Shown here: piece after piece, positions 3,174-32,926 of the stretch
Layout: every line of letters starts with the position of its first letter
Position numbering within the stretch: the stretch's first letter is position 1
Virus record (IMG/VR): IMGVR_UViG_2706794664_000015
Direction: 5' to 3' (one strand)
Length of the DNA stretch: 34,883 nucleotides
Origin: a virus
Lineage: Duplodnaviria; Heunggongvirae; Uroviricota; Caudoviricetes
Made by a program: the position numbers and the translations under genes
Notes under the pieces: model-generated
The model's input: only the letters and a program-made list of their open reading frames with translations
The model's database searches: none
Told to the model about the DNA's origin: nothing

Positions 3174-3445
3174 GTATTCGTATTGAAATTGGCGAACGTT
3201 ATGTCGTTACCAGTGACAGCTTCCAGTTTATTCTCCACGAGAAAAAGAGAGCGGAAAGCGGTAAAAACGCCGGTCAGGAATGGCTGGCGGTGGTTGGTTA
3301 TTACCCGAAATTAAGCCAGCTCGTTTCCGGCCTGATGCATCACGATATTCTGACCGGAAGCGCAAAGTCTTTTGCTGATTTAAACGCGCAGGTTGAGCAA
3401 CTCAGCAAGCGTTGTTCAGAGGCTTTTGGCTCATATGGCCGTTAA
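3170..3445 (+). CDS. Small hypothetical protein (P2 orf83-like position)
   Basis: 91-aa ORF, overlapping neighbours on both sides, directly upstream of A. Confidence 0.5.
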   Translation: MSIRIEIGERYVVTSDSFQFILHEKKRAESGKNAGQEWLAVVGYYPKLSQLVSGLMHHDILTGSAKSFADLNAQVEQLSKRCSEAFGSYGR

Positions 3446-5501
3446 AGCCTCCGGGCGTTTTGTCCCTCCGTCAGCATTTGCTGCAGGCACCGGTAAGGCG
3501 TTTACCGGTGCTTATGCATGGAACGCGCCACGCGAGGCTGTCGGGCGCGAAAGACCCCTTACACGTGACGAGATGCGTCAGGTGCAAGGTGTTTTATCCA
3601 CGATTAACCGCCTGCCTTACTTTTTGCGCTCGCTGTTTACGTCACGCTATGACTACATCCGGCGCAATAAAAGCCCGGTGCACGGGTTTTATTTCCTCAC
3701 ATCCACTTTTCAGCGTCGTTTATGGCCGCGCATTGAGCGTGTGAATCAGCGCCATGAAATGAACACCGACGCGTCGATGCTGTTTCTGGCTGAGCGTGAC
3801 CACTATGCGCGCCTGCCGGGAATGAATGACAAGGAGCTGAAAAAGTTTGCCGCCCGTATCTCATCGCAGCTTTTCATGATGTATGAGGAACTCAGCGATG
3901 CCTGGGTGGATGCGCATGGCGAAAAAGAATCGCTGTTTACGGATGAGGCGCAGGCTCACCTCTATGGTCATGTTGCTGGCGCTGCACGTGCTTTCAATAT
4001 TTCCCCTCTCTACTGGAAAAAATACCGTAAAGGACAGATGACCACGAGGCAGGCATATTCTGCCATTGCCCGTCTGTTTAACGATGAGTGGTGGATTAGT
4101 CAGCTTAAAGGCCAGCGTATGCGCTGGCATGAGGCGTTACTGATTGCTGTCGGGGAGGTCAATAAAGACCGTTCTCCTTATGCCAGTAAACATGCCATTC
4201 GTGATGTGCGTGCACGCCGCCAGGCAAATCTGGAATTTCTTAAATCGTGTGATCTCGAAAACAGGGAAACAGGCGAGCGCATCGACCTTATCAGTAAGGT
4301 GATGGGCAGTATTTCTAATCCTGAAATTCGCCGGATGGAGCTGATGAACACCATTGCCGGTATTGAGCGTTACGCCGCCGCAGAAGGTGATGTGGGGATG
4401 TTTATCACGCTGACCGCGCCGTCAAAGTATCACCCGACACGTCAGGTTGGAAAAGGCGAAAGTAAAACCGTCCAGCTAAATCACGGCTGGAACGATGAGG
4501 CATTTAATCCAAAGGATGCGCAGCGTTATCTCTGCCGTATCTGGAGCCTGATGCGCACGGCATTCAAGGATAATGATTTACAGGTCTACGGTTTGCGAGT
4601 CGTCGAGCCACACCACGACGGAACGCCGCACTGGCATATGATGCTTTTTTGTAATCCACGCCAGCGTAACCAGATTATCGAAATCATGCGTCGCTACGCG
4701 CTCAAAGAGGATGGCGACGAAAGAGGAGCTGCGCGAAACCGTTTTCAGGCAAAACATCTTAATCGGGGCGGTGCTGCGGGGTATATCGCGAAATACATCT
4801 CAAAAAATATCGACGGCTATGCACTGGATGGGCAGCTCGATAACGATAGCGGCAGACCGCTGAAAGATACTGCCGCGGCTGTTACCGCATGGGCGTCAAC
4901 GTGGCGCATTCCGCAATTTAAAACGGTTGGCCTGCCGACAATGGGGGCTTACCGTGAACTACGCAAATTGCCTCGCGGCGTCAGCATTGCTGATGAGTTT
5001 GACGAGCGCGTCGAGGCTGCACGCGCCGCCGCAGACAGTGGTGATTTTGCGCTGTATATCAGCGCGCAGGGTGGGGCAAATGTCCCGCGCGATTGTCAGA
5101 CTGTCAGGGTCGCCCGTAGTCCGTCGGATGAAGTTAACGAGTACGAGGAAGAAGTCGAGAGAGTGGTCGGCATTTACGCGCCGCATCTCGGCGCGCGTCA
5201 TATTCATATCACCAGAACGACGGACTGGCGCATTGTTCCGAAAGTGCCGGTCGTTGAGCCTTTGACTTTAAAAAGCGGCATCGCCGCGCCTCGGAGTCCT
5301 GTCAATAACTGTGGAAAGCTCACTGGTGGTGATACTTCGTTACCGGCTCCCACACCTTCTGAGCACGCCGCAGCAGTGCTTAATCTGGTAGATGACGGTG
5401 TTATCGAATGGAATGACCCGGAGGTTGTGAGGGCGCTCAGAGGTGCATTAAAACACGGACTGAGAAGACCAACCGTCAGCAAAGAAACGGAAGCCCGTTA
5501 A
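3435..5501 (+). CDS. A: Rolling-circle replication initiator A (P2 gpA-like), apparently truncated at the C-terminus by a frameshift
   Basis: ATG at 3435 (MAVKASGRF...) matches P2 gpA N-terminus as recalled; 688 aa here versus about 761 aa for gpA; homology appears to continue in another frame in ORF 5549..5731. Confidence 0.85.
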   Translation: MAVKASGRFVPPSAFAAGTGKAFTGAYAWNAPREAVGRERPLTRDEMRQVQGVLSTINRLPYFLRSLFTSRYDYIRRNKSPVHGFYFLTSTFQRRLWPRIERVNQRHEMNTDASMLFLAERDHYARLPGMNDKELKKFAARISSQLFMMYEELSDAWVDAHGEKESLFTDEAQAHLYGHVAGAARAFNISPLYWKKYRKGQMTTRQAYSAIARLFNDEWWISQLKGQRMRWHEALLIAVGEVNKDRSPYASKHAIRDVRARRQANLEFLKSCDLENRETGERIDLISKVMGSISNPEIRRMELMNTIAGIERYAAAEGDVGMFITLTAPSKYHPTRQVGKGESKTVQLNHGWNDEAFNPKDAQRYLCRIWSLMRTAFKDNDLQVYGLRVVEPHHDGTPHWHMMLFCNPRQRNQIIEIMRRYALKEDGDERGAARNRFQAKHLNRGGAAGYIAKYISKNIDGYALDGQLDNDSGRPLKDTAAAVTAWASTWRIPQFKTVGLPTMGAYRELRKLPRGVSIADEFDERVEAARAAADSGDFALYISAQGGANVPRDCQTVRVARSPSDEVNEYEEEVERVVGIYAPHLGARHIHITRTTDWRIVPKVPVVEPLTLKSGIAAPRSPVNNCGKLTGGDTSLPAPTPSEHAAAVLNLVDDGVIEWNDPEVVRALRGALKHGLRRPTVSKETEAR

Positions 5502-5548
5502 AACCGCATGAAATAGCGCCATCGGCCAGACTGACCCGGTCGGAACGA

Positions 5549-5731
5549 ATGCAAATTACCCGTATCCGCGTTGACCTTGCTCAGAACGGTATCAGGCCGC
5601 AGCGATGGGAGCTTGAGGTGCTGGCGCGTGGGGCAACCGTAAATTATGACGGGAAAAAATTCACTTACCCGCTCGCTGATGAGTGGTCGGGATTCTCAAC
5701 AGTATTAGAGTCAAACTCAGTGAAGCGTTAA
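5549..5731 (+). pseudogene. A: Out-of-frame 3' remnant of gene A
   Basis: 60-aa ORF in a different frame directly downstream of A; its reading frame continues upstream without stop to about 5453, overlapping the A frame; combined span 3435..5731 gives about 764 codons, the canonical gpA length. Confidence 0.6.
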
Positions 5732-5817
5732 CTCAATAAATATGAGTTTATAAGTTAGGCCTCGAGATTTTGTAGAAAGGGATGTATACTGAGTATCGTA
5801 TAGATTTGGAGTGAGTG

Positions 5818-6840
5818 ATGACTGTAAAGGTGATAGACCTTTTTTGTGGTGCTGGCGGATTAACTCATGGTTTGCAGCTTGCGGGGCTTGATGTCGTTGC
5901 AGGCATTGACCTTGAGGGGGAATGTAGGTTTCCCTATGAAAGAAACAATAAATCTAAGTTTATTGAGCAAGATATCGCTAAAGTAACAAAAGAGGAACTG
6001 CTGAGGCTTTATGGTGATGCGTCTGTAAAAGTATTGGCAGGATGCGCACCTTGCCAACCTTTTTCAAAATATACTCAAGGAAAAGATAAGGCTGATGATA
6101 AAAAATGGCCTCTTCTTTATGAGTTCGAACGTTTAATTCGCGAAGTATCTCCAGAAATCGTAACAATGGAGAACGTTCCTGATGTAACTAAACATAAAGT
6201 TTATAATGATTTTTATAATTCATTGTTAAAGTTGGGCTATTATGTTTGGGCGTCTAAGATTGATTGTGTCGAATATGGAATCCCACAAAACCGTTCCCGT
6301 CATGTATTGTTGGCCTCAAAATTGGGGGCGATTGAGTTAGTAAAACGTGACGATGTTATTTTGAAAACAGTTAGAGATGCAATAGGAAATCTTCCTCCAT
6401 TAGAAGATGGCCAAACAGATCCAAATGATATATTACATAGAGCCAGTAAATTAAATCCGATTAATAAAAAAAGAATTATACACTCTGTTCCTGGTGGTAC
6501 ATGGAAGGACTGGCCGAAAGAGTTGGTTGCCGCTTGTCATATGAAATCCAGCGGTAAAGGGTATGCTAGTGTATATGGGCGCATGTCTTGGGATAAGCCA
6601 AGTCCAACAATTACAACTCTTTGTTATGGTTTCGGGAATGGGCGTTTTGGACATCCAGAACAGCATAGAGCGATTTCTCTTAGAGAGGCTGCTTTATTGC
6701 AAACTTTCCCGATGGATTATATTTTTGTAGAAGACAAAAACAAGTTTGTTATAAGAAGTATTGGGAAAATGATAGGTAATGCTGTTCCTGTGGAACTAGG
6801 AAAAGCAATTGGGCAATCAATCAAGAACCATTTAGAATGA
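5818..6840 (+). CDS. DNA (cytosine-5)-methyltransferase
   Basis: Motif I FCGAGG, motif IV PCQPFS, motif VI ENV, motif VIII QNRSRHV; ATG at 5818 with GGAG 6 nt upstream; AT-rich relative to the phage backbone; lies in the tin/old slot. Confidence 0.9.
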   Translation: MTVKVIDLFCGAGGLTHGLQLAGLDVVAGIDLEGECRFPYERNNKSKFIEQDIAKVTKEELLRLYGDASVKVLAGCAPCQPFSKYTQGKDKADDKKWPLLYEFERLIREVSPEIVTMENVPDVTKHKVYNDFYNSLLKLGYYVWASKIDCVEYGIPQNRSRHVLLASKLGAIELVKRDDVILKTVRDAIGNLPPLEDGQTDPNDILHRASKLNPINKKRIIHSVPGGTWKDWPKELVAACHMKSSGKGYASVYGRMSWDKPSPTITTLCYGFGNGRFGHPEQHRAISLREAALLQTFPMDYIFVEDKNKFVIRSIGKMIGNAVPVELGKAIGQSIKNHLE

Positions 6841-6846
6841 TAAAAT

Positions 6847-6863
6847 GGCCTGCTTTACAGGCC
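6847..6863. terminator. Bidirectional stem-loop between convergent genes
   Basis: GGCCTG (6847-6852) / CAGGCC (6858-6863) stem with 5-nt loop, flanked by A/T runs, in the 29-bp gap between the MTase stop and the HEPN-like gene stop. Confidence 0.5.
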
Positions 6864-6869
6864 TTATAA

Positions 6870-7550
6870 CTATTGTTCTAAATATTCATTATTATTTATA
6901 TAGTGCTCTATATTATTCACGATAGCATCAAGATAGGCGATTACTTCTAATGAAATATTCTCTAAGTCCTGATATGAAACATTTTTTCCAATCTCAGCAA
7001 ATGATACATTGCCATGAGATAAATCATTACGATGTTGTTTAACAGTGGCTAATTTTTCACCATGTTTAGTGTGAGTGTAATCGGAATGTGTAGAAAAACC
7101 ATATATTTTCGATTTTTCTTTGATTTCCTCTCTATCAATATTTCCTGAGAATATTTTCTTTTTGTTGAACGTGCCATAAGATATACCGCAAGATATACCT
7201 TTGGTAAGGTGATTAACTAAACTTTCAACATTTACAGATTCATTTTTTAATCTTTTTAATATTTCTGACCTGAGATTTTTCCTGAGTTTGTCAAATTCTA
7301 CGTTTCTATCATAAATAGTCTCATGAATAAGGCAGATAGCTTCTCTCATTGTTGATTCAATGAGGTTATATAACAGTATATATACTGCTCCCTTTAGAGT
7401 TTTTCGTGATTGAGCAGTAATGGAGAACTTATGTTCTTTATCATCAGCTGATATCAGTTCTGCACCGGCATACTCAATAAATTTCAAAAGATCCAAATAG
7501 GCCAAGATCTCTCCTGACCTTTCGTCAAAATCCTCACGAAAACGATCCAT
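6870..7550 (-). CDS. HEPN-like protein (Rx4H motif), second gene of a two-gene cargo operon
   Basis: 226-aa ORF; ATG (7548-7550) lies 1 nt from the upstream gene's stop (7552-7554); C-terminal KQHRNDLSHG fits the HEPN Rx4-6H motif; AT-rich. Confidence 0.65.
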   Translation of the reverse strand: MDRFREDFDERSGEILAYLDLLKFIEYAGAELISADDKEHKFSITAQSRKTLKGAVYILLYNLIESTMREAICLIHETIYDRNVEFDKLRKNLRSEILKRLKNESVNVESLVNHLTKGISCGISYGTFNKKKIFSGNIDREEIKEKSKIYGFSTHSDYTHTKHGEKLATVKQHRNDLSHGNVSFAEIGKNVSYQDLENISLEVIAYLDAIVNNIEHYINNNEYLEQ

Positions 7551-7551
7551 G

Positions 7552-8694
7552 TTAATCCTCTAATAATTTATCCCGAACATATTCAATTCGTTCAATTACC
7601 TTCACGCGACTATTAGCTCCGTCGGAAGTGGTCAATCGTTTGAATTCTTCTGAGCTTAGCCAATCTAAGTTCTTGGGAACAAGGTCAGGGACTTCACGTA
7701 ATGCAAGTGCTGCGCCAACAGCGAGAGATTCGAATCTAACTCGAGGTGTAGATTTTGCAGTAATAGTTTTCTTGAATCCTGCTGGGAAATAGTTTTCAAC
7801 AAAAGATAGAACATTAGCAAACTCTTGTTTCATTGAGTTTTGTTTAGTTTCGTCTATATCTCGATTTTCTGACATATAGTCATTTAGAAAATCCCGTACG
7901 GAATGATCAAAGTTCTTGTACTTATCTACGTAGGCAAAGAATCTTAATGTAAATTCTAACCGTTCATCTCGTTTTTCTTTAGTCTGAGATAAAGGTGCTA
8001 ATTCTTTAAATTTAGGTATTGTTGAGCATGGCTTAATAACCTGTGTATATAAATTTGTTGAACCAAGTTCTGATCCTTTACGGACTTCCATATCTTTCAA
8101 TATATCGCTGCCAGAGTTAATACGCTCAAAAAGATCTCTACGGGTTTCTTCATTGCATTTAGAACTCAATTCTATAACGCGGACAGGAATTCTCATGAAA
8201 CGACGTTGACGTGATAATGGTAAATCTTGGAATTTGAAACCATTAAGGACGTCTAAAGATTTCAGGTCTTGTAAAACTAATTCATTTTGGATAAAAGCGT
8301 GTATAGTCCTAACTCGTTGTGAGCCATCAACAATCTCAATTCGCCCATCTAAATCGGGATCTTCGGAGAGAACATCTGCTATAAATATATATGGTATAGG
8401 AAAACCCAAAATCAAAGACTCTATCAATTTTGATTGTCTTTTTTCACTCCAAACAAAATCCCTTTGATAATCAGGAACAAAGAGTTCGTTAGTATCATCC
8501 TCTAATCCGTTATGATACTTATTAACTAATAACTCAACGGTAAATTCTTTGGTCTCAAAATCCACATCCTTTTGCTCAGCACGAATTTGCTCTTCAGCGT
8601 TTTGCTTTATCACCTCTAGCTGAGCAAGCAACTCTGCTCTTTTCTTGGCATTATCTTCATTTTCTAGTTGAGATTTTAAATCAATAATGTCCAT
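7552..8694 (-). CDS. DUF262 / ParB-like (GmrS-type N-terminal domain) protein, first gene of the cargo operon
   Basis: 380 aa from ATG 8692-8694 (AAGGGA RBS upstream; ORF track extends to a TTG at 8712); PDYQRDFVW and DGSQR motifs characteristic of DUF262; AT-rich. Confidence 0.8.
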   Translation of the reverse strand: MDIIDLKSQLENEDNAKKRAELLAQLEVIKQNAEEQIRAEQKDVDFETKEFTVELLVNKYHNGLEDDTNELFVPDYQRDFVWSEKRQSKLIESLILGFPIPYIFIADVLSEDPDLDGRIEIVDGSQRVRTIHAFIQNELVLQDLKSLDVLNGFKFQDLPLSRQRRFMRIPVRVIELSSKCNEETRRDLFERINSGSDILKDMEVRKGSELGSTNLYTQVIKPCSTIPKFKELAPLSQTKEKRDERLEFTLRFFAYVDKYKNFDHSVRDFLNDYMSENRDIDETKQNSMKQEFANVLSFVENYFPAGFKKTITAKSTPRVRFESLAVGAALALREVPDLVPKNLDWLSSEEFKRLTTSDGANSRVKVIERIEYVRDKLLED

Positions 8695-8879
8695 GTCTAG
8701 TTCCCTTAACAAGTGTTAAAAATTGAAGCGGATAGCATACCGCATAGATCATGAAAAATGCCATCATGTGCATGGATTTGCATGCGTCAGAAGTCGCTTT
8801 TATTGTTAGTTATCACTAGCGCTGGCGTGCTCTTGGAGTGTTCATGCAACTGCATTAAAACCGCCCCATGAAGCGGGCG

Positions 8880-26414: not shown

Positions 26415-27833
26415 CTACATCGGGCTCTTATATGGGGAATGAGAGTTTTTGAAACGCGGTTCTTCATGCTTCGGACTGTAAATTCTTGCATGATTATCTA
26501 TCACAACTTTACTTCCAAGAATATCTCGAGCTTCTCCTAACGACCACACAGTAGAAAGATCATTAGTCAAATTTCGATAGAGAGCACGAAACCCCTTGGG
26601 TTTTTTAAGATCATATAAGAAATCAGGAACTTTAACTTTAAAATTAAAGGTCGGTAGTTTCGGAAGGGAATTAATAGCCGCAACAGTATTGTATACATGT
26701 ACAAGCTTAGTTACAGGTACACCTTGTCTAGTCTTGAGCCCATACTTAGTTCGAATATAATCTGATTCTTTCGATACTTCAGTAAGCAATGCTCTTACTG
26801 ACTTATTAGCTTGAGGCAATTCATTTTCATCAAACAAGCGCTTTATTTCTCGCATTTTCTCACGGGCCCTTACAAATTCGTTGTTGTCCCTTATGTTATA
26901 AGCAGCTTCAACAATACAACTTGGATCACCAGTTTCTTTTGCGAGCCATGCCGAAAATAAAGGAAGCGAAGTTGCTGTTGCTACAGCTTTACCACCAGAA
27001 TGAATATCAATGAGATCATGACTTAACGAAGTGGAAAAGTTTTCTACAATATGTTTAGCATAGTTAAAACCATACTGACAGTTTTGGCTTAAATATGTCT
27101 GTTGATACGCCTGACGTAATGGATATAAAAAAGTATCTGCTTGAAGGTACTTAGCTGTGAGAGAATAAAATACTGCCCGATTAGCCAGCCATACAAGCGA
27201 AGCCACGAATGCTTTGATTGCATCTGATGCTTCACCAGCAGATGTGCCATCCCCCCATTTTGCTCCGGGAACTTTGTACCCCTTGCGAATAGGGTTGCCA
27301 AATCGATCGAGAAGTTCAACATCGCCATTTGTTCTATTACCAGACTCAGCAGCATCACGCAGTTCTGAAAAAATGGCAGCAGCAATGTTACCATATTTTT
27401 CAAACTCCTTACCTCCATCAGATAAGTTCTTCAGTGTTAGATGATAAACACTTGAACTAATGTCCCATGTACATATGATATGTGTCTGAAGAAGTTCAAT
27501 TAGTTTTTTAAAATCGTCATTAACAAATGTTCCACCACGAATTTTAGGTTTCAATGCATCAGATATTTTTTTTGCTTCACTTTCAATTTCATCCAACCCA
27601 TATTGTGCTTTATCAAGAAATAATATCTCTCTGAAACTTGAAATCCTACTCCCACGGTACTCTGGAATATAATCATCAACCGCGATAACGTGATCATAGA
27701 ACAAAATAGACTGTATATAGTTCTCAAATGCTATTATGTCTGTATCTACTGAGTCCTTCGATCTTGTTTTTACTTTCCCCTCGATTCTTTGGACTGCAGT
27801 TAGAGTTGAATTATCAATCAGTGCGTATGTCAT
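26415..27833 (-). CDS. Uncharacterised 472-aa cargo protein in the Z/fun slot (candidate defense gene)
   Basis: ATG 27831-27833 with AAGGAA RBS; AT-rich; antisense to the late operon between G and FI; no catalytic or NTP-binding motif recognised by eye. Confidence 0.8.
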   Translation of the reverse strand: MTYALIDNSTLTAVQRIEGKVKTRSKDSVDTDIIAFENYIQSILFYDHVIAVDDYIPEYRGSRISSFREILFLDKAQYGLDEIESEAKKISDALKPKIRGGTFVNDDFKKLIELLQTHIICTWDISSSVYHLTLKNLSDGGKEFEKYGNIAAAIFSELRDAAESGNRTNGDVELLDRFGNPIRKGYKVPGAKWGDGTSAGEASDAIKAFVASLVWLANRAVFYSLTAKYLQADTFLYPLRQAYQQTYLSQNCQYGFNYAKHIVENFSTSLSHDLIDIHSGGKAVATATSLPLFSAWLAKETGDPSCIVEAAYNIRDNNEFVRAREKMREIKRLFDENELPQANKSVRALLTEVSKESDYIRTKYGLKTRQGVPVTKLVHVYNTVAAINSLPKLPTFNFKVKVPDFLYDLKKPKGFRALYRNLTNDLSTVWSLGEARDILGSKVVIDNHARIYSPKHEEPRFKNSHSPYKSPM

Positions 27834-30449: not shown

Positions 30450-32926
30450 CAATGTAAAATTACAGGTATTGCTCAGGGCTGTTGACCAGGCGTCCCGCCC
30501 GTTTAAATCCATCCGCAGAGCGAGTAAGTTGCTGTCGGGGGATATCCGGGAAACACAAAAATCACTGCGCGAGCTGAACGGTCACGCATCCCGTATTGAG
30601 GGATTCCGCAAGACCAGTGCACAGCTCGCCGTGACTGGTCATGCACTTGAAAAGGCACGGCAGGAGGCCGAAGCCCTTGCCACACAGTTTAAAAACACCG
30701 AACGCCCGACCCGTGCTCAGGCGAAAGTGCTGGAATCCGCAAAGCGTGCGGCGGAGGACTTACAGGCGAAATATAACCGCCTGACAGATTCCGTTAAACG
30801 CCAGCAGCGGGAACTGGCCGCTGTGGGAATTAATACCCGCAATCTTGCACATGATGAGCAGGGACTGAAAAACCGTATCAGTGAAACCACCGCCCAGCTT
30901 AACCGGCAGCGTGACGCGCTGGCGCGTGTCAGTGCGCAACAGGCAAAACTTAACGCAGTCAAACAGCGTTATCAGGCCGGAAAGGAACTGGCCGGAAATA
31001 TGGCCTCAGTGGGCGCTGCCGGTGTGGGGATTGCTGCTGCGGGAACGATAGCCGGAGTTAAGCTGCTGATGCCAGGTTATGAGTTTGCGCAGAAAAACTC
31101 AGAATTGCAGGCTGTGCTCGGTGTGGCAAAAGACTCCGCCGAAATGGCTGCACTCCGCAAGCAGGCGCGCCAGCTCGGTGACAACACCGCCGCCTCAGCG
31201 GATGATGCGGCCGGTGCACAGATTATCATTGCGAAAGCGGGTGGGGATGTTGATGCCATTCAGGCGGCAACGCCGGTCACGCTGAATATGGCGCTGGCGA
31301 ACCGCCGCACAATGGAAGAAAACGCCGCCCTGCTGATGGGGATGAAATCCGCCTTTCAGCTTTCAAACGATAAGGTCGCTCATATCGGGGATGTTCTCTC
31401 CATGACGATGAACAAAACCGCCGCTGATTTTGACGGCNNNNNNNNNNNNNNNNNNNNNNNNNNNNNNNNNNNNNNNNNNNNNNNNNNNNNNNNNNNNNNN
31501 NNNNNNNNNNNNNNNNNNNNNNNNNNNNNNNNNNNNNNNNNNNNNNNNNNNNNNNNNNNNNNNNNNNNNNNNNNNNNNNNNNNNNNNNNNNNNNNNNNNN
31601 NNNNNNNNNNNNNNNNNNNNNNNNNNNNNNNNNNNNNNNNNNNNNNNNNNNNNNNNNNNNNNNNNNNNNNNNNNNNNNNNNNNNNNNNNNNNNNNNNNNN
31701 NNNNNNNNNNAGAAATGCAGGCCAGCTTTGAGAAAAACCGGCTCGGTACTGCCCAGCAGGCCGAATACATGAAAACCATTTTCGGGGAGGAGGCCAGCTC
31801 AGCCGCCGCTGTGCTGATGACTGCCGCGTCAACCGGAAAGCTGGACAAACTGACCGCTGCGTTTAAAGCCTCAGACGGGAAGACCGCAGAGCTGGTAAAT
31901 ATCATGCAGGACAACCTCGGCGGTGACTTTAAGGAGTTTCAGTCCGCTTATGAGGCGGTGGGGACAGACCTGTTTGACCAGCAGGAAGGCGCGCTACGTA
32001 AGCTCACGCAGACGGCCACAAAGTATGTGTTAAAACTCGACGGCTGGGTACAGAAAAACAAATCACTGGCGTCAACCATTGGCCTCATTGCCGGTGGCGC
32101 GCTGGCGCTGACTGGCATCATCGGTGCAATTGGTCTTGTAGCCTGGCCGGTTATCACCGGCATCAATGCCATCATCGCGGCAGCAGGCGCAATGGGGGCA
32201 ATCTTCACGACGGTTGGTAGTGCCGTTATGACGGCCATCGGGGCGATTAGCTGGCCGGTTGTGGCTGTGGTGGCCGCCATTGTCGCCGGGGCGTTGCTTA
32301 TCCGTAAATNNNNNNNNNNNNNNNNNNNNNNNNNNNNNNNNNNNNNNNNNNNNNNNNNNNNNNNNNNNNNNNNNNNNNNNNNNNNNNNNNNNNNNNNNNN
32401 NNNNNNNNNNNNNNNNNNNNNNNNNNNNNNNNNNNNNNNNNNNNNNNNNNNNNNNNNNNNNNNNNNNNNNNNNNNNNNNNNNNNNNNNNNNNNNNNNNNN
32501 NNNNNNNNNNNNNNNNNNNNNNNNNNNNNNNNNNNNNNNNNNNNNNNNNNNNNNNNNNNNNNNNNNNNNNTTAATGCGTTCAACAAATTGCGCAGCGGCA
32601 TTGACTGGGTACTGGAAAAGCTCGGGGTCATCAACAAAGAGTCAGACACACTTGACCAGACCGCCGCCAGAACTCATGCCGCCACGTATGGCACCGGTGA
32701 TTATATTCCGGCGACCAGCTCTTATGCAGGCTATCAGGCTTATCAGCCGGTCACGGCACCGGCTGGCCGCTCTTATGTGGACCAGAGTAAAAACGAATAT
32801 CACATCAGCCTGACGGGTGGTACTGCACCGGGGACACAGCTTGACCGCCAGTTACAGGATGCGCTCGAAAAATACGAGCGGGATAAACGTGCGCGCGCCC
32901 GTGCCAGCATGATGCATGACGGTTAA
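30442..32926 (+). CDS. T: Tail tape measure protein (P2 gpT-like)
   Basis: About 827 codons; coiled-coil-rich N-terminus, Gly/Ala-rich hydrophobic segment; interrupted by N-masks 31438-31710 and 32310-32570, with reading frame differing between unmasked segments. Confidence 0.85.

Follow-up and report, generated by a model that had tools for sequence, protein, structure and literature searches.

A C5-cytosine DNA methyltransferase (MTase) gene in the tin/old cargo position of a P2-like prophage is viewed here, with modest confidence, as the likely source of modification (self-marking) in a conserved defence module of three genes; the other two encode an NsnA-like DUF262 protein, a predicted NTPase, and a predicted HEPN RNase of the MAE_28990 family. 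The triad is co-inherited across phyla and unrelated genomic contexts. All three of its genes are intact and carry their catalytic motifs, and the module contains neither a DNA endonuclease nor a fourth gene. An association of HEPN, ParB (DUF262), and DNA methylase genes was noted computationally in 2013 by Anantharaman et al. (PMC3710099). The triad family is therefore computationally known and its gene content is unsurprising to a specialist; RefSeq already names all three genes. What is newly described here is that the MTase is ancestral and has been lost in places, and that its target-recognition region is conserved.

The cargo cassette

The window, which is the whole stretch of DNA analysed (34,883 nucleotides; IMG/VR record IMGVR_UViG_2706794664_000015), is a P2-like prophage. 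An integrase gene (1-1011, - strand) and the Cox/C region are followed by the gpA replication gene (3393-5731), and then by portal, terminase, capsid, and tail genes. The triad is located in a cargo cassette (5732-8760) at the P2 gpA-portal (tin/old) hotspot. An earlier reading of this DNA from its letters alone (the sequence-only reading) had described AT-rich cargo in the tin/old slot, and both the position between gpA and the portal gene and the GC content agree with this: 0.387 for the MTase gene and 0.359 for the cassette, compared with 0.533 in gpA and 0.557 across the capsid/terminase region.

Two neighbouring genes converge on the MTase gene. The gap between the stops of the MTase and HEPN genes is exactly 29 nt (6841-6869) and contains a hairpin (GGCCTG-CTTTA-CAGGCC, 6847-6863; free energy -10.8 kcal/mol, z -3.4 vs shuffles), in keeping with the sequence-only reading, which had reported a gap of this length with a hairpin before a convergent HEPN-like gene. 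There is a terminator-like call on the - strand of the gap, and the hairpin is probably a bidirectional terminator. That reading had also seen no obvious restriction endonuclease gene, and this too holds: in searches with Pfam and PADLOC the two neighbours show DUF262 and HEPN domains and nothing else, and neither a restriction endonuclease domain nor a DUF1524 His-Me nuclease is identified in the cassette. An ATPase gene (NsnB-like) additional to the DUF262, HEPN, and MTase genes is likewise absent from the cassette, where HEPN alone follows DUF262.

The methyltransferase and its target-recognition region

The MTase gene (5818-6840, + strand) encodes 340 aa when read from the ATG at 5818. The 341-aa protein of the sequence-only reading corresponds to a real ORF on the + strand (5815/5818-6840), but that length is obtained only from a GTG at 5815. 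Reading of the sequence places a Shine-Dalgarno GGAG (5808-5811, + strand) 6 nt before the ATG. Further upstream, a consensus scan picks out a sigma-70-like promoter candidate (TCGAGA-17-TATACT, 5762-5790, + strand; 9/12 matches), which is weak evidence because sites of this kind are no more numerous than expected from shuffled sequence. The protein is 100% identical to protein cluster P0001.

Several lines of evidence identify the enzyme class. The Pfam family PF00145 matches residues 4-336 over profile positions 2-323 of 324 (E 3.4e-58; 198.1 bits, cut-off 22), and the score for TIGR00675 (dcm superfamily), 130 bits, exceeds its cut-off of 100.65. In contrast, PRK10458 reaches 17 bits against a cut-off of 710, and by NCBIfam the enzyme is therefore not a Dcm (CCWGG) orthologue. 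The best PADLOC matches are DrmMII (1.2e-90) and MTase_II (6.7e-89), and the enzyme fits best to the DISARM/Druantia MTase models. When aligned to M.HaeIII (1dct), the protein has its motifs in canonical order: I (FCGAGG), IV (PCQ, with the catalytic Cys79), VI (ENV), VIII (QNRSR), and X (GNAVP). The first four had been picked out in the earlier reading, to which the alignment adds motif X. The catalytic motifs are kept in 45/45 orthologues and, as judged from the sequence, the gene in the window encodes an intact DNA cytosine methylase. A full-length alignment with CmoX (8yf3) raised carboxymethyltransferase chemistry as a candidate, which is excluded by the Asn in motif X; CmoX has Arg350 where HhaI has Asn304 (PMC12783734).

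The target-recognition region is strongly conserved. We expressed conservation per column as the share of sequences carrying the most frequent residue, in blocks of 20 residues, over a set that spans Gammaproteobacteria, Cyanobacteria, and Acidobacteria. Residues ~201-300 (the variable/target-recognition region) gave values of 0.76-0.93, which equal or exceed those of the catalytic core. This suggests that a single recognition sequence is shared family-wide. The target sequence itself is not predictable from the solved relatives HaeIII, HhaI, DNMT1, 3g7u, and CmoX (8yf3), which are too distant (E 1e-14 to 1e-22).

The HEPN and DUF262 partners

The first of the convergent genes (6870-7550, - strand) encodes a MAE_28990-family HEPN protein of 226 aa, predicted to be an RNase effector (PF18737, E 5.8e-29, 102.2 bits, cut-off 26.8; PF18735, 8e-09). 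Its Rx4H motif is RNDLSH (R174, H179), which is kept in 87 homologues, and an AF2 model (pLDDT 88.7) is all-alpha. Searches gave no PADLOC model match even at E 10 (PD-T4-2_B included), no PDB-sequence match, and no significant Foldseek match.

The second gene (7552-8694, - strand) encodes an NsnA-like DUF262 (ParB-fold) protein of 380 aa, a predicted DNA sensor/NTPase (DUF262/GmrSD_N, E 8e-26). The ORF reaches 8712, and the RefSeq-annotated start, the ATG at 8694 that gives 380 aa, is more likely to be the true one. Among PADLOC models the protein matches NsnA, the Menshen sensor, over its full length (1.7e-54), as well as PD-T4-2_A (2.5e-35). The motifs defined in the literature for such proteins are present (QRxxxW as QRDFVW, DGxQR as DGSQR, FxxxN as FERIN), and a search of PDB sequences returned no match. 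Only 1 nt separates the DUF262 stop from the HEPN start, which indicates that the two genes form an operon.

Linkage of the three genes

The exact cassette is found in 9/5426 complete E. coli genomes, always as the whole triad and always in the gpA-portal slot, and two further alleles of it occur in 4 and 3 genomes. Among more distant homologues of the MTase, seven were chosen across the range of 60-87% identity, from Pantoea, E. coli, Klebsiella, Pseudomonas sp. OIL-1, P. aeruginosa, Shewanella, and Stenotrophomonas, and in 7/7 the HEPN and DUF262 genes are directly downstream and convergent. Their contexts differ: the Pantoea triad is in a 186-like prophage, those of E. coli and Klebsiella are in P2-like prophages, that of Pseudomonas sp. 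OIL-1 is in a chromosomal, non-phage island, and that of P. aeruginosa is in an integrase island where a Vsr gene is inserted between MTase and HEPN. The Vsr mismatch endonuclease of this island (locus L092, 5528-5938) implies the presence of real genomic 5mC. In IMG/VR the DUF262-HEPN pair adjoins the MTase in 11 of 13 close relatives, and more than 20 MTase and HEPN matches come with a longest contig of the same size. The triad is also present in phage P2_4B2 and in the Moraxella catarrhalis temperate phages Mcat24-32; in the latter, for example in Mcat32 (locus L111, 3486-6401), the genes are annotated merely as hypothetical proteins.

The same linkage is seen when the search starts from HEPN. 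Scanning of the GTDB species representatives yielded 410 relatives, of which the best 80 were inspected; these are mostly cyanobacterial and phylogenetically clustered. Within this set of 80, DUF262 is immediately upstream of HEPN at every locus (80/80), and an orthologous MTase (phmmer E 1e-115 to 1e-131 against the window enzyme) is adjacent at 34. It is convergent in 31 of these and co-directional and upstream in 3, in one of which (L077) the MTase reading frame stops 3 nt before the DUF262 frame starts. The motifs of the partners, Rx4H in HEPN and DGxQR in DUF262, are conserved. The arrangement of the triad is conserved in 60 loci, and clustering of their flanks in search of a hidden fourth gene (a restriction endonuclease or Vsr) showed P2 backbone genes alone to recur.

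The history of the three genes also appears to be shared. On a neighbour-joining tree of concatenated DUF262 and HEPN, presence of the MTase is the root state and changes three times: in a monophyletic cyanobacterial clade that is MTase-less, in Dolichospermum/Aphanizomenon (L020/L021), and at one contig end. The MTase is ancestral to the sampled DUF262-HEPN family, with ~3 losses. The pairwise identity matrices of MTase, DUF262, and HEPN are correlated, with r of 0.85-0.90.

These observations bear on the role of the MTase. The sequence-only reading had left two options, an orphan anti-restriction methylase or the modification component of a three-gene system. An independent orphan might protect P2 DNA from restriction or bring about epigenetic conversion of the lysogen, and merely share its slot with DUF262-HEPN. 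Consistent with this, the gene has its own promoter-like site, its own ribosome-binding site, and the opposite orientation; unrelated cargo is stacked in P2 hotspots (PMC9519451); pair-only systems exist; and the same MTase clade is found with other partners. Yet the genes stay next to each other over an MTase identity range of 51-87%, whether in non-phage islands, other phage families, or other phyla, and they do so in either of two gene orders. The three genes also diverge in a correlated way, and the MTase is ancestral on the tree of the pair itself. We consider the orphan option improbable and therefore disfavour it, while an added benefit of the methylase to the phage may still exist. The second option is the one supported by this conserved, co-inherited adjacency across phyla and mobile-element contexts: an MTase that travels with DUF262-HEPN across distant bacteria is most likely a self-marking partner rather than a stand-alone methylase.

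Pairs without a methyltransferase, and methyltransferases without a pair

Departures from the triad are informative about how its parts depend on each other. In the MTase-less cyanobacterial clade the pair is located between housekeeping genes, which include acnB (17 Nostocales loci) and clpB (~10 Microcoleus loci), and it keeps Rx4H and DGxQR across many genera. A substitute type of MTase was sought beside these pairs and none was found, the flanks being the housekeeping genes acnB and clpB. In Dolichospermum (L020) the MTase is reduced to a remnant of 92 aa (7713-7988) beside an intact pair. The L020 and L021 loci (Dolichospermum, Aphanizomenon) are unique in having DGAQR instead of DG[S/T]QR in the DUF262 NTPase motif, which may be an attenuating change that accompanied loss of the MTase. 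A further example is Peduovirus P24B2 (phage P2_4B2; NC_049387; locus L110, 1997-3179), where the triad is next to gpA and DUF262 and HEPN are intact, while the MTase is split into two ORFs that cover residues 1-229 and 225-339; the split could be a sequencing error. These cases, in which an intact pair has a lost or split MTase, are viewed at the level of the locus, and an MTase with this specificity could be encoded at an unlinked position. In addition, a 1.8-kb clone that carries the DUF262 and HEPN genes of PD-T4-2, but no methylase, protects E. coli K-12 from T4 (PMC9519451). Taken together with PD-T4-2, the intact pairs with a lost or split MTase make it unlikely that the pair acts simply as a nuclease lethal to cells that lack the methylation.

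That loss of the MTase is tolerated makes a licensing model a serious rival. Here the MTase, or its 5mC on self DNA, would be required for DUF262-HEPN activity, as in Type III restriction-modification (R-M), BREX, or SspE: the MTase might supply sequence recognition, or methylated self DNA might activate the sensor, and a pair without the MTase would be silent rather than toxic. Such dependence would fit with an MTase that can be lost or frameshifted beside an intact pair, with the strongly conserved target-recognition region, with the near absence of intergenic space in the co-directional loci, and with SspE, where the modification that its own linked genes introduce activates the DUF262 domain (PMC10952713, PMC12065111). 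It is harder to reconcile with the MTase-less cyanobacterial clade, whose intact motifs over many genera suggest that the pair works alone, with the ability of PD-T4-2 to defend without a methylase, and with the organisation of MTase and pair as separate convergent transcription units in most loci. On this evidence licensing is unlikely, with perhaps a minor share of the probability.

Conversely, two MTase orthologues (53-60% identity) occur without the pair and beside other restriction-like partners. One is next to Vsr and a 714-aa GHKL ATPase (locus L106, 5016-7569), and the other is next to a 1056-aa SNF2 helicase (locus L108, 5059-8229). Along with the matches to DISARM/Druantia models, these partners suggest that the MTase behaves as a portable unit of modification among R-M-like systems.

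Relationship to known defence systems

The closest relatives of the triad are the MAE_28990 operons (PMC3710099, PF18737), in which the same three gene families are adjacent. The window HEPN is above the PF18737 gathering score and has Rx4H, and the cyanobacterial operons, including those of Microcystis, are orthologous (38-43% identity for HEPN and 51-60% for MTase). These operons have been known as a comparative-genomics table entry without experiment, whereas here they appear as cargo of a P2-like enterobacterial prophage. A search of the literature found no paper other than that of Anantharaman et al. that mentions the MAE_28990 HEPN-ParB-methylase family.

The validated anti-T4 system PD-T4-2 of E. 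coli (Vassallo et al. 2022, PMC9519451) is similar in having DUF262 followed by HEPN, and the window DUF262 matches PD-T4-2_A, though NsnA is the better match. It differs in that its clone has no methylase, its two ORFs span ~1.5 kb, and PD-T4-2_B does not match the window HEPN. Since the HEPN has no PADLOC match, direct membership of PD-T4-2 is not claimed. Our literature search found no mechanistic characterisation of PD-T4-2, and the text of Rousset 2022 mentions neither DUF262 nor a methylase. Menshen (NsnABC; Millman 2022; Li et al. 2025, PMC12065111) provides the best likeness for the sensor, with a ParB-DUF262 and a C-terminal helical domain as in NsnA, and nuclease-less methylases adjoin some Menshen loci (Li et al., PMC12065111). 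However, the triad lacks the NsnB ATPase and the NsnC inPIN-nuclease effector, and HEPN takes the place of the effector.

Other systems share single features with the triad. GmrSD, BrxU, and SspE combine DUF262 with DUF1524, whereas the triad has no DUF1524, uses a separate HEPN effector, and would involve 5mC rather than phosphorothioate. Type II R-M systems with a C5-MTase, such as that of M.HaeIII, resemble it in having a canonical, non-permuted enzyme and a convergent M/R-style layout with a shared hairpin, but the triad has no restriction endonuclease. For DISARM and Druantia, DrmMII is the best model for the MTase, but the neighbours are DUF262 and HEPN, and there are no Druantia genes; in PADLOC the MTase model alone matches, with no match for DrmA, DrmB, or DrmC/D/E. 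In PrrC-EcoprrI, a HEPN RNase is genetically coupled to DNA modification in a proposed two-layer logic (PMC3710099). There, PrrC fuses an ABC-ATPase to HEPN and is restrained by a complete type Ic R-M enzyme, whereas the triad is without a DNA-cleaving partner.

Possible mechanism and its significance

Analogy with GmrSD/BrxU/SspE and PrrC-EcoprrI, along with the general proposal of Anantharaman et al., allows a mechanism to be sketched. The MTase would methylate one short, fixed motif in the DNA of host and prophage, and the DUF262 protein, as a member of a family that acts as modification sensor in GmrSD and SspE (PMC12065111), would read the methylation state of this motif on incoming DNA. 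An unmethylated motif would mark DNA as foreign, following the logic of R-M, BREX, or DISARM. By analogy with GmrSD, BrxU, and SspE, NTP hydrolysis by DUF262 might then switch on the HEPN partner, and the predicted RNase would cut RNA and stop phage growth, the outcome being abortive infection or an arrest of translation, not restriction of DNA. The persistence of the pair after loss of the MTase in several lineages makes it probable that the restriction arm is not lethal by itself. Counting against the reading of unmethylated DNA as foreign, the known DUF262 sensors GmrSD and BrxU recognise modified, not unmodified, DNA. We put forward only tentatively, as a possibility a little short of even, the full scheme of an R-M-like immunity without a DNA endonuclease, in which a fixed-motif C5-methylase marks self, DUF262 reads the mark, and HEPN cleaves RNA, amounting to methylation-gated abortive infection.

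The opposite polarity leads to a different view of the pair, as a Type IV-like system. In this case DUF262-HEPN would sense the hmC or glucosyl-hmC of T-even-like phages, and the 5mC made by the MTase would have another use, such as the masking of self sites. The selection of PD-T4-2 on T4 and the targeting of modified cytosine by the DUF262 enzymes GmrSD and BrxU are in its favour. Hosts of the triad family include cyanobacteria, Acidobacteria, and Moraxella, and hmC-DNA phages are not known to threaten such hosts generally. A Type IV-like pair would also leave the conserved target-recognition region and the strict co-inheritance of the MTase unexplained, and no DUF1524 nuclease is present. 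Such a role for the pair therefore seems a long shot, and a self-marking role for the MTase is retained as our preferred interpretation.

If the MTase does gate DUF262-HEPN, then an epigenetic self-mark on DNA would be coupled to an RNase and not to a DNase, a logic that was predicted by Anantharaman et al. in 2013. The module is compact, with three genes in ~3 kb, it occurs in E. coli P2 prophages, and it has a validated methylase-less relative in PD-T4-2, which make it testable in K-12. Such work would also make clear which signal is read by the DUF262 sensors of Menshen, Dazbog, and PD-T4-2. There is also a consequence for genome annotation, where a 'DNA cytosine methyltransferase' of this type should not be scored as an orphan.

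Other features of the prophage

Outside the cassette, the structural genes are interrupted by ten masked stretches, each a run of N of ~250-290 nt, from the first at 12230-12495 to the last at 32310-32570; ORFs called across such a run are not reliable. An AT-rich ORF of 472 aa (26415-27833, - strand) occupies the second cargo slot of P2, which lies between the genes for tail-fibre assembly and tail sheath. It has no match in Pfam or PADLOC and is a candidate cargo or defence gene.

The backbone shows two interruptions. Compared with E. coli JNE120442, gpA has a 1-nt deletion near 5470, with the result that the ORF ends at 5501 and its final 60 codons (5549-5731) fall in a different frame (region 5465-5731); this frameshift represents either a pseudogene or a sequencing error. 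The portal gene is interrupted by an IS21-family element (9240-11877) with a 5-bp overlap/target duplication, which carries the istA (10111-11778, - strand) and istB (9339-10337, - strand) ORFs. The insertion in the portal gene and the gpA frameshift suggest that the prophage is defective, with its cargo triad still intact.
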